A DNA stretch of 40,374 bases, taken from Candidatus Doudnabacteria bacterium CG10_big_fil_rev_8_21_14_0_10_41_10 (lineage in GTDB: Bacteria; Patescibacteriota; Doudnabacteria; UBA920; 2-01-FULL-50-11). This document shows, piece by piece, positions 32,370 to 39,118 of the stretch. Location: NCBI GenBank assembly GCA_002773695.1, contig PFAJ01000070.1:5961-46334 (forward strand), read 5' to 3'. The notes below the pieces were generated by a model that had not been told where the DNA came from, ran no database searches, and saw nothing but the letters and a program-made list of their open reading frames with translations. Both the position numbers and the translations under genes were made by a program. Within the stretch, counting starts at the first letter, position 1, and every line of letters begins with the position of its first letter.

Positions 32370-32448
32370 GGTGCGGGGTGAGCCCATATCCCTGCCGGCG
32401 GCAGGGCATCCTTGGCAAGGACGCATAATACCACTATACGATACCCGA
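32370..32448 (-). pseudogene. orphan tRNA-Gly(GCC)-like 5' part fused to a foreign hairpin and the 13-mer TCACCCCGCACC
   Basis: The minus strand reads TCGGGTATCGTATAGTGGTATTATGCGTCCTTGCCAAGGATG-CCCTGCCGCCGGCAGGG-ATATGGGC-TCACCCCGCACC. The acceptor 5' strand, D arm and anticodon arm are nearly identical to the real gene about 100 nt downstream. The T arm is replaced and there is no matching 3' acceptor strand. Confidence 0.65.
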
Positions 32449-34886: not shown

Positions 34887-35031
34887 ATGATGTCTAACGG
34901 GGCGAACGTACGTTTTTTATTTTGTGAAATTTTTTAAAAGAAATTTGTTCCGGTTAAATTCCCTCCCCCGATCTCGTTTCCATGAGATTTTTTGAGCTTT
35001 ACCCCCGGCGGAATTTCACCCCGCACCTTTT

Positions 35032-35103
35032 TCTCCCCACCAGGAATCGAACCTGGATCTAGGGCTTAGGAGTCCCTTGTTCTATCCATTGAACTACGGG
35101 GAG
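35032..35103 (-). tRNA. tRNA-Arg (anticodon CCT)
   Basis: The minus strand reads CTCCCCGTAGTTCAATGGATAGAACAAGGGACTCCTAAGCCCTAGATCCAGGTTCGATTCCTGGTGGGGAGA. Anticodon loop CTCCTAA. It closely parallels the E. coli argW layout as I remember it. Confidence 0.88.
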
Positions 35104-35108
35104 CAAAA

Positions 35109-35174
35109 GGCGCGGGGTGAACTTACATTTAGAGCTTAGGCTTCCCTTGTTCTATCCATTGAACTTACGGGGAC
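35109..35174 (-). pseudogene. orphan tRNA-Arg(CCT)-like 5' part ending in TTCACCCCGCGCC
   Basis: The minus strand reads GTCCCCGTAAGTTCAATGGATAGAACAAGGGAAGCCTAAGCTCTAAATGTAAG-TTCACCCCGCGCC. The D arm is identical to the real gene 5 nt downstream. The anticodon loop is changed to AGCCTAA (U33 lost), and there is no T arm or 3' acceptor strand. Confidence 0.65.
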
Positions 35175-37771: not shown

Positions 37772-38003
37772 TTTTAACGCTGTTAAACAATAGAAAATAA
37801 AGCTAGTAAGAGACATTAGTTTTCAGGAGGACTACAAATGACAGACCGCACGGTTTTGTTGGGGGGTATTATTCGGATATAAACCGCTTTTGTTATTGTG
37901 TGGATTACAGCAACATTTGTTTTTCTGGTATTTCTGGATTTGAATAATCGGGGGAAATCACAAGCTTTTTTGTTGTTTTATGTGAGATTGCAATAATGCA
38001 ATT

Positions 38004-38273
38004 GTGCTTCCAATTTTGCCTAAAAAGAAACATTTGGCATGGGGAATATTCACCGATGGAGGTTTTAAAAGGGTAGCTTGTGGCATGGTTTTGATGATGG
38101 TGTTTGCAACAACTGCATTGATCCCACAGCAAAAGATTGATATGGCAAACTGGAGGGAATTACCTTTTATAACCAAAACCTTATGGGCGCTGGTGTTATT
38201 GGGTTTTTTTGGAGGCCTTGAGAGTTTACTTCTCCAAATGTTTTGGTTCGAACGGAAGCGCTCGCCAGTATAA
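38004..38273 (+). CDS. possible small membrane protein (may be part of a broken gene)
   Basis: 89-aa GTG-initiated ORF with two hydrophobic segments. The upstream frames (37838 onward) contain a good SD and ATG but are cut by stops. Confidence 0.3.
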   Translation: MLPILPKKKHLAWGIFTDGGFKRVACGMVLMMVFATTALIPQQKIDMANWRELPFITKTLWALVLLGFFGGLESLLLQMFWFERKRSPV

Positions 38274-38426
38274 CCCTCGATCCTTTTATCTGGTTTTTTT
38301 ATCCAAACAAAAAACCCTACCTTCACAGGGGGTATTTGGAAGTAATTTTATTTTTTAACTTAGCTTTGTGTACCCAGAGGAGAATCCTTTATCGCTAAAG
38401 CCTTGGAGGACACAGTCAAATTCTTA

Positions 38427-38610
38427 AACCTGCTCTGCTTCGCAGGTTATGAATTACGAAACTCTCTAAACCGCATGTGTCATTGCGACCCCGGACTAGA
38501 TCCGGGGGCGGCAATCTCGTGGTGTTCCCTTGGGAGTGCTTCTCCGTCCGCCGTGGCGGACGGATCGCAGTGACATGAAATTAGAGTTTCGTAATTTAAG
38601 TTCGCAGGAT
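38427..38610. repeat. GC-rich nested-hairpin element (candidate structured RNA or REP-like unit)
   Basis: Hairpin AACCTGC/GCAGGTT (38427-38448); outer 14-bp stem AATTACGAAACTCT (38452-38465) / AGAGTTTCGTAATT (38583-38596); inner stem GTCATTGCGA (38479-38488) / TCGCAGTGAC (38565-38574). These enclose the hairpins CCCCGGA-CTAGA-TCCGGGG (38489-38507) and TCCGTCCGCC-GT-GGCGGACGGA (38543-38564). Confidence 0.45.
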
Positions 38611-38701
38611 ACTTTGTTGTTTTTAAATTAACAAAAAATCGTTTTTTTACGAAACAGCATTTGCACTTCGTAGCCCCGAGTAATAGCGAGGAGCGAAGAA
38701 G

Positions 38702-38772
38702 TGGACTCACCGGGAATCGAACCCGGGCCTCAGCAATGCGAATGCCGCGTAATACCACTTTACTATGAGCCC
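38702..38772 (-). tRNA. tRNA-Ala (anticodon CGC)
   Basis: The minus strand reads GGGCTCATAGTAAAGTGGTATTACGCGGCATTCGCATTGCTGAGGCCCGGGTTCGATTCCCGGTGAGTCCA. G3:U70 present; anticodon loop TTCGCAT. Confidence 0.9.
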
Positions 38773-38780
38773 ATGAATTT

Positions 38781-38825
38781 GGTGCGGGGTGAAAATGCCG
38801 CGTAATACCACTTTACTACCGGTCC
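38781..38825 (-). pseudogene. orphan tRNA-Ala-like 5' half ending in TTCACCCCGCACC
   Basis: The minus strand reads GGACCGGTAGTAAAGTGGTATTACGCGGCATT-TTCACCCCGCACC. The D arm and the 5' anticodon stem are identical to the real tRNA-Ala(CGC) 8 nt downstream, and the acceptor strand differs. The tRNA similarity breaks off inside the anticodon loop. Confidence 0.65.
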
Positions 38826-38830
38826 TGGGA

Positions 38831-38971
38831 TTAGAACTGTTCGGCCAGTCTGTCTAAAAATCCATTCGCGCGATTGGCAAAGTATAGAGCAATCAGGACC
38901 ACAACGAAAAATAGATTTATAGCAAGCGACCACATAACGTCTTTTTTATTGGTTTTATAATCTTGTTCCAT
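38831..38971 (-). CDS. possible 46-aa single-TM protein
   Basis: MEQDYKTNKKDVMWSLAINLFFVVVLIALYFANRANGFLDRLAEQF. Below the track cutoff, with no homology recognised. Confidence 0.3.
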   Translation of the reverse strand: MEQDYKTNKKDVMWSLAINLFFVVVLIALYFANRANGFLDRLAEQF

Positions 38972-39118
38972 AACTCTTTTAAAATAATCGTTTTCCACCC
39001 AAGGCGGATTTCTTTAATTATTTAATTTTAATGTTAATAATATAATAAGAGAAACGATAATTCTGAATTACTATTGTTGAAGTTGCTTCAAAGTGCTAGT
39101 ATTATAACCTAAAAGATT

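Follow-up and report, generated by a model that had tools for sequence, protein, structure and literature searches.

An orphan tRNA-Ala half in a Doudnabacteria genome, best read as the fossil shell of an older gene and one instance of a tRNA-within-tRNA pattern widespread in its order

How does the 5' half of a tRNA gene come to stand, broken in its anticodon loop, directly upstream of an intact gene of the same kind? The case considered here lies in a 40,374-nt stretch (hereafter the window) of a Candidatus Doudnabacteria genome (contig PFAJ01000070.1 of assembly GCA_002773695.1), where a partial tRNA-Ala is followed on the minus strand by a short 'cap' and then by a complete tRNA-Ala(CGC) (Table 1). 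A first-pass annotation had likened the break to those of split and intron-containing tRNA genes. From comparison with related genomes, the orphan half is instead best read as a fossil shell, one instance of a tRNA-within-tRNA pattern that is widespread in the order.

Table 1. Features of the tRNA-Ala locus and of two sister loci, in window coordinates.
Feature	Position	Strand	Basis
Working inner tRNA-Ala(CGC), uninterrupted, G3:U70	38701..38772	minus	ARAGORN; Rfam tRNA 64.7 bits
Spacer AAATTCAT, arm to inner tRNA	38773..38780	minus	sequence
Putative left terminal arm of inserted cassette (the 'cap'), TTCACCCCGCACC	38781..38793	minus	repeated motif
Outer tRNA-Ala positions 8-33 (D arm, 5' anticodon stem, U32 U33), TAGTAAAGTGGTATTACGCGGCATT	38794..38818	minus	25/25 direct repeat
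GGACCGG, probable decayed 5' acceptor strand of the outer (older) tRNA-Ala	38819..38825	minus	sequence; decay is our reading
Small membrane-protein ORF, weak DUF485 match (Pfam)	38831..38998	minus	ORF list
Hairpin module ACTTCTTCGCTCC...GGGGCTACGAAGTGC, abutting the tRNA-Ala 3' end	38663..38702	minus	12-mer core repeated
Sister case: tRNA-Arg(CCT) with both arms, TTCACCCCGCGCC ... GGTGCGGGGTGAA, 17-bp helix, decayed tRNA-Arg copy before	35015..35121	minus	
Sister case: tRNA-Gly(GCC) 5' part then CTCACCCCGCACC, upstream of working tRNA-Gly(GCC)	32370..32448	minus	

The outer segment (38794-38818) is an exact copy of 38741-38765, tRNA positions 8-33 of the inner gene, at a spacing of 53 nt and with 28 nt between the two copies. 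These 25 nt occur only twice in the 1.08-Mb genome, and an exact repeat of this length is far beyond what chance could plausibly give. Similarity between the two tRNA-Ala copies is confined to this stretch. The first-pass annotation was accordingly right in placing the break after position 33, in calling the D arm and 5' anticodon stem identical to those of the real gene, in setting the acceptor strand GGACCGG apart from GGGCTCA, and in denying that this is a simple tandem copy. The inner gene is the sole CGC isoacceptor among the 40 tRNAs of the assembly (1.08 Mb in 70 contigs, 41% GC) and must therefore be the working one. The window sequence is present in groundwater and aquifer metagenome samples, and the locus was recovered on independent contigs in four groundwater metagenome runs, one contig covering 38745-38816 (fragment, cap and start of the tRNA) without a mismatch, so the arrangement is no assembly artefact.

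Upstream of the repeat, the stop codon of the small ORF (38833-38831) is followed by TCCCA and then by GGACCGG, which begins 5 nt past the stop, at the point where the outer or single tRNA-Ala starts in relatives. GGACCGG resembles the outer acceptor strand GGCCCGG of one relative (G021) and has A3 in place of the G3 needed for alanine identity; most simply, it would be the decayed acceptor strand of the outer tRNA-Ala. This strand has 2-3 changes in 7 nt whereas the next 25 nt have none, a contrast that plain decay does not explain, and gene conversion from the inner copy, or another origin of GGACCGG, is possible. A promoter-like TTGTAA-17-TATAAT lies at 39129-39101 (minus strand), upstream of the small ORF (38998-38831), and no terminator was found between that ORF and tRNA-Ala, which suggests an mRNA-tRNA co-transcript; as judged from these signals, the small ORF, the fragment and the tRNA-Ala likely share one transcript. 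RNA runs match only 2-3 of 16 sequence words, probably from conserved tRNA of other organisms.

The same small-ORF end precedes tRNA-Ala in G001, G007, G021, G029, G030, G034 and G037, which span several families of the order, so that the locus is orthologous among them. In at least 19 of 146 genomes of the order, alignments run from tRNA-Ala(CGC) into an upstream tRNA-Ala 5' fragment. Both outer halves are kept in G007, G122, G115, G110, G093, G069, G120 and G029, where the 5' half, ending at U33, is followed by an arm, the complete tRNA-Ala(CGC), the complementary arm and the 3' half. In relatives, the outer halves often have perfect stems, G3:U70 and an encoded CCA, and the outer gene starts where the single gene of un-nested relatives does, directly after the small ORF. 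In the closest relative (G001), as in many others, tRNA-Ala is one uninterrupted gene with no fragment beside it. Where remnants persist, 5' fragments are kept more often than right sides (G000, the window genome itself, G021, G034, G108 and metagenome contig L091). Between G122 and G115, the outer stems differ by compensatory changes, and outer shells could thus still be under selection rather than dead.

In G007 a 'GGGCCCG/CGGCA' gene surrounds a 'GGGCTTA/CCACA' gene and in G029 the reverse holds, which speaks for more than one insertion; nesting reaches three levels in G120 and G101. Arm-type inserts lie in tRNA-Ala(CGC) directly after U33 in the window genome, in G007, G030, G069, G093, G122, G115, G110, G120, G004, G101 and G078, and, on contigs L090 and L092, in each of the layers, so that insertion recurs at the same position of the same gene, while other tRNA-Ala inserts sit in the D loop. 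One such D-loop insert, in an outer tRNA-Ala of G103, G096, G107 and G091, holds the window's tRNA type (99% identical), and these outer genes bear hairpin-only inserts in their anticodon and T loops as well; the window's inner tRNA has 99% identity to inner tRNA-Ala genes of another family of the order. The window's junction, GCATTTTCACCCCGCACCAA / GGCATTTTCACCCCGCACCAA, is common to G069 and three unrelated metagenome contigs. Two of these contigs are three-level cases with each layer broken after CATT, and the third is in the window's own state, with a decayed 5' fragment, left arm and intact tRNA and the right side absent. Spacers resembling that of the window (AAATTCAT, AATTTGAATAT) occur in G007 and G069. 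As a separate observation, GC-rich hairpin-only inserts occur in the D, variable and T loops of outer shells in relatives (loci L031, L032, L035, L017, L019 and L023), never in stems, and one of them, CTTGTCCGCCATAGCTTTAGCGACGGCGGAGG, is identical in two genera.

The cap itself belongs to a repeated element. It had been likened to the leader arm at tRNA-Arg, and the two indeed carry the same motif, TTCACCCCGCRCC, which occurs six times in the window genome (exact 13-mer TTCACCCCGCACC). Across the order the exact 13-mer gave 46 matches in 31 of the 146 genomes, against 7 for the reversed control, and it is not enriched elsewhere in the phylum (about 11 versus 9 matches in 376 genomes). The contexts of 20 of the order-wide matches were read one by one. 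In at least 13 of the 20, the 13-mer is one arm of an inverted pair, its partner GGTGCGGGG lying 57-187 nt away, and between the two arms lies a complete tRNA, itself set within a broken gene for a tRNA of its own kind that runs in the same direction (Thr, Arg, Met, Val-TAC, Val-CAC, Gln, Pro-TGG, Pro-CGG, Ile-GAT, Leu-CAG twice and Leu-TAG); three of the 20 were empty hairpins. Multiple copies with conserved inverted termini, the hallmark of a MITE-type family, are thus present both in the window genome (six copies) and order-wide (46 versus 7).

Of the six copies in the window genome, five are informative. The cap at tRNA-Ala is one; another stands directly upstream of tRNA-Arg(CCT), after a decayed tRNA-Arg copy, and an inverted copy directly downstream completes the helix (Table 1). 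The element at the tRNA-Gly(GCC) 5' part, CTCACCCCGCACC, is a one-mismatch variant of the 13-mer. Contig C45 holds two copies, one of which, together with a TTTACCCCGCACC variant, brackets a GIY-YIG ORF with an in-frame TAG, and no other protein gene was seen between arms of this type. The Ala, Met, Val and Leu junctions showed no target-site duplication; there, if anything, the target lacks 0-4 nt, and the boundaries are ambiguous. We considered TTCA as a fixed target tetranucleotide in the style of IS200/IS605, and it fits the Met and T-loop cases, but D-loop inserts carry a TTTA that does not derive from the target, and the idea was dropped.

On this comparison of sequences, we put at about 0.78 the probability that an older tRNA-Ala(CGC) gene was split by an arm-bounded cassette carrying the present working tRNA, and that the segment is what is left of its 5' side, a shell. 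On this reading, the cassette, in which a left arm (TTCACCCCGCACC) and a short spacer led to a complete tRNA-Ala(CGC) and then to a right arm complementary to the left, entered the anticodon loop of the older gene directly after U33, destroyed the resident tRNA-Ala and put the tRNA that it carried in its place; comparison with relatives shows these steps. The window genome would later have lost the right arm and the outer 3' half, beside a rearrangement breakpoint and another hairpin module, and the outer acceptor strand would have mutated (G3 to A); with the right side lost and G3 changed, the fragment can no longer form a tRNA. It presumably rides in the leader of the small-ORF/tRNA transcript and is removed by the RNase P cut at the inner tRNA.

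As for spread, the arms appear to be the termini of a repeated element that is specific to the order and varies in its cargo, and arms that are shared while cargo varies favour a MITE-like family. For a given tRNA the insertion site recurs and looks like that of a homing element, with small GIY-YIG genes in some inserts as candidate drivers, and homing-like copying is favoured by the fact that successive layers interrupt the same tRNA at an unchanged position. Pairing of the arms probably also prevents the inner pre-tRNA from folding together with the outer halves, to which it is homologous. In an alignment of both arms of 12 anticodon-loop Ala elements, which was registered by hand and therefore leans toward the helix, 91% of cells are paired, whereas slid registers reach 51% at most; 11 of 17 pairs have changed on both sides (CACC/GGTG, TCAC/GTGA, TTAC/GTAA and CCCT/AGGG, for example), and none of 500 shuffles was as good. 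From such compensatory changes it follows that what is maintained is the base-pairing, whether in RNA or in single-stranded DNA, and not a protein-binding sequence alone. The arm helix covaries; the window's own row is the outlier, CCCCG alone having a partner. The GCGG...CCGC hairpin that the first-pass annotation saw in the cap can be drawn and is present in the minimum free energy (MFE) fold, but CCGC is not conserved in homologous elements; nor is the terminal ACC(A), homologous arms reading CCCCGTCAC, CCCCGTTAC and others.

A relic may, of course, acquire a new use. The 25 nt are perfectly conserved beside an acceptor strand that has changed, G021, with a different inner tRNA, has kept an 18-nt core, GTGGTATTACGCGGCATT, unaltered in its outer fragment, and 5' fragments outlast right sides in the genomes and the contig named above, all of which could be taken to mean that the fragment now functions in the leader, as a decoy or insulator for folding and RNase P, or as a protein/ribosome-independent tRNA-like element. 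Such a role is compatible with an origin as a relic. We nonetheless think it unlikely, for the fold of 38640-38830 is no better than that of shuffles (z = -0.11), the fragment is missing from the closest relative and many others, and what remains ranges from a full 5' half to a 9-nt stub (G034).

Partial tRNA duplicates are also the classical footprint of integration at tRNA genes, and an archaeal precedent exists at a Caldiarchaeum tRNA-Thr, where a 5' tRNA fragment lies 1.8 kb upstream of the intact gene with a recombinase-bearing element between them (PMC3293823). By this analogy the fragment would be the att-site relic of a large integrative element, a tyrosine-integrase island or prophage that sat at tRNA-Ala and was later deleted, which we regard as very improbable. 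Only 28 nt separate the repeat copies, with no recombinase-bearing element or its remains among them, and no integrase appears among the ORFs listed for 36.5-40.4 kb. In relatives a complete tRNA and paired arms stand between the two halves, the whole spanning no more than about 250 nt and lacking an integrase, and the same arms are found at many kinds of tRNA and at several loop positions, which is unlike one integrase acting at one core site. The loci of this order do share with tRNA-targeting integrative elements an interrupted tRNA whose function is restored by sequence of the element, and an orphan fragment left behind. Those elements, however, are kilobases long, encode a recombinase and duplicate only the core and 3' (or 5') part, whereas the inserts here measure 100-250 nt and hold a whole tRNA between the old halves.

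Slightly weaker still is a functional split or intron-containing tRNA, in which the intervening RNA would be removed and the 5' half joined, as RNA, to a 3' half in cis or in trans, in the manner of archaeal split tRNAs. It draws on the position of the break in the anticodon loop, on those relatives whose outer halves keep perfect stems, G3:U70 and CCA, on the compensatory outer-stem differences between G122 and G115, and on the conserved helix formed by the arms. The genome, however, holds no 3' half that fits GGACCGG (the assembly is about 94% complete): the search for CCGGTCC urged by the first-pass annotation, whether after a T arm or as CCGGTCC-N-CCA, gave nothing tRNA-like in the 1.08-Mb assembly. 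A3 moreover abolishes the G3:U70 identity pair. The splicing endonuclease EndA (PF01974) is absent from all 31 genomes searched (the window genome and 30 relatives), while the same search found it in four archaeal control genomes. No group I core (Rfam Intron_gpI) was detected in the window or in nested loci L006, L010 and L018, where tRNA was the sole Rfam family matched, and the inserts, at 100-130 nt of which about 72 nt are inner tRNA, are too short for such an intron. In the 10 homologous Ala elements with both halves, the outer loop reads TT, insert, T and lacks CGC, so that splicing could not restore the decoder. Finally, an intact tRNA of the same kind is always found inside, which would make a spliced outer copy redundant. 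The nested loci do resemble the disrupted tRNAs of archaea (BHB introns, split and tri-split genes) in being interrupted in loops (anticodon, D, T and variable), in having flanks that pair into a helix and in allowing several interruptions per gene. They differ in their bacterial host without a splicing endonuclease, in an outer anticodon that cannot be restored, in the intact tRNA of the same kind inside, and in an outer gene that is apparently not reassembled.

We also scanned the window genome for an essential tRNA existing only in interrupted form, using ARAGORN with introns allowed and a scan for T arm plus acceptor; the scans returned two odd cases, on contigs C34 and C45, and no decisive one. 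The latter (C45:20631-20903, L087) is a tRNA, His-GTG by ARAGORN, with good acceptor, D and T arms and a 197-nt insert after U33 that holds no inner tRNA and no Rfam group I match; a separate intact tRNA-His lies on C40. The former (C34:4232-4351, L088) is tRNA-like, with G3:U70 and CCA, and has its anticodon loop replaced by an extended arm of about 45 nt, the Rfam tRNA model scoring 52.7 bits across the insert. Neither tRNA-Asn nor tRNA-Lys was found in the 70-contig assembly. A mirror image of the Ala case occurs at C66:434-599, where 56 nt past a complete tRNA-Cys(GCA) its 3' half (positions 35-73, 39 nt) stands a second time without a mismatch.

A purely local event, in which slippage or illegitimate recombination partially duplicated the resident tRNA-Ala beside an unrelated cap, can draw on the 100% identity of the repeat to its neighbour and on a single gene with the same positions 8-33 in the closest relative, but is scarcely credible, given that the 13-mer after the repeat recurs at other nested tRNAs of the window genome and in 30 other genomes, that the junction GGCATTTTCACCCCGCACCAA is found again in G069 and three unrelated metagenome contigs, and that the similarity ends at 25 nt where a tandem duplication would extend it.

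Candidate nucleases for such insertion are the small GIY-YIG ORFs (70-150 aa), of which there are up to about 10 per genome. Seven of 24 sampled genes of this kind have a tRNA no more than about 320 nt away, where tRNA density would roughly predict about 3%. In G017, tRNA-Asn positions 1-33 are followed by a GIY-YIG ORF and then by a complete tRNA-Asn, which is the architecture of the window with a nuclease gene added. G001 has a fully nested tRNA-Gln with a GIY-YIG gene inside, and in G024 such a gene stands between tRNA-Lys and a copy of its last 19 nt. The window genome itself has one between an 11-nt tRNA-Glu start and a complete tRNA-Glu, and another flanked by the same arms as the window's cap. 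Those GIY-YIG inserts that were read (that of G017, for example) lack CCCCG arms, and arm-type cassettes lack a nuclease, so that nuclease and arms may be two separate systems. No GIY-YIG remnant was detected in the window, where an HMM of five of the genome's own GIY-YIG proteins, run against the six-frame translation, gave a best E of 0.63; ORF 37958-38326, downstream of the tRNA, looks vaguely GIY...YIG-like by eye and was set aside for want of Pfam or HMM support. Two small GIY-YIG ORFs of the window genome (C6:5621-5824 and C45:4041-4217), next to tRNA or arm structures, each contain one in-frame TAG; these may be decaying copies or subject to read-through.

Known mobile elements offer partial parallels. 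Free-standing GIY-YIG homing endonuclease genes can bring with them a replacement piece of the host gene, as does the Allomyces mitochondrial atp6-ORF element; fungal mitogenomes have duplications of host-gene fragments beside endonuclease genes, and SegB of phage T4 resides in a tRNA gene cluster. The present loci resemble these in that a nuclease gene is inserted with a copy of the host gene, the insert's copy restoring function while the displaced part becomes a pseudogene, and in the GIY-YIG genes within inserts at tRNA-Asn, tRNA-Gln, tRNA-Lys and tRNA-Glu. They are unlike them in that the hosts are bacterial chromosomal tRNAs, with a whole gene carried inside the old one, in that most copies, including the window's, have paired hairpin arms in place of a nuclease gene, and in serial nesting to three levels. 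With MITEs and palindromic repeats (Correia elements, RPEs, REP/BIME and the IS200/IS605-derived PATEs) they share small size, non-autonomy, inverted termini in a long hairpin, the existence of empty copies, and here a restriction of the family to one order. They depart from these in that they carry an entire tRNA gene of the kind that they interrupt, that their termini covary instead of staying constant, and that no target-site duplication was seen. Our literature searches found no description of nested bacterial tRNA genes.

We consider the chances about even that these loci represent a new class of selfish cassette in Patescibacteria, one that invades tRNA loops and survives by bringing its own complete tRNA copy rather than by splicing, that is driven by GIY-YIG nucleases, that produces 'Russian-doll' genes, and whose arms insulate the inner pre-tRNA. 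If this is true, it would explain many of the 'orphan tRNA halves' and tRNA-like fragments of the reduced genomes of the candidate phyla radiation, and tRNA fragments beside tRNA genes should then be annotated as shells, not as split genes. A mobile element could in this way inhabit an essential single-copy RNA gene by replacing it, without any splicing machinery. The nested loci would provide a natural record of serial gene replacement and of a possible horizontal spread of tRNA alleles, and the abundant, uncharacterised small GIY-YIG proteins would be nominated as candidate tRNA-gene-specific nucleases.

There remains the right side of the cassette, which the window lacks. Its expected place, together with that of the outer 3' half, is occupied by the hairpin module at 38663-38702, whose 12-mer core GCTACGAAGTGC has four exact copies in the window genome (the others at C14:4425-4436, C45:20930-20941 and C45:25818-25829), each directly next to a tRNA end, or to that of a tRNA relic, and pointing either way. 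The module reads ACTTCKTCGC...GCTACGAAGTGC, and it also follows tRNA-Leu(TAG) in G115. The trailer partners CGGGG and GTGCAAATGC, which the first-pass annotation had paired with the leader, both belong to this separate module, and the leader-trailer helix at tRNA-Ala is therefore probably coincidental; on the same ground we gave up reading CGGGG/GTGCAAATGCTG as what decay had left of the right arm and of the outer anticodon-stem strand. In G037, G029 and G042, tRNA-Ala is followed by a DUF4446 gene in the same orientation; in the window that gene lies on the other side and is divergent, which places a rearrangement breakpoint at the 3' side of tRNA-Ala. The right arm and the outer 3' half are thus absent altogether, and the case for this particular locus consequently rests on the homology of its left junction with those of relatives. 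Slightly further along, within 38427-38610, lies a GC-rich element of about 145 nt whose ends are perfect 14-bp inverted repeats (38452-38465 / 38583-38596) and which is bordered by direct repeats TAWCCTGCGAA; it looks like a MITE with target duplication and has related copies, at 85-90% identity, in metagenome contigs.
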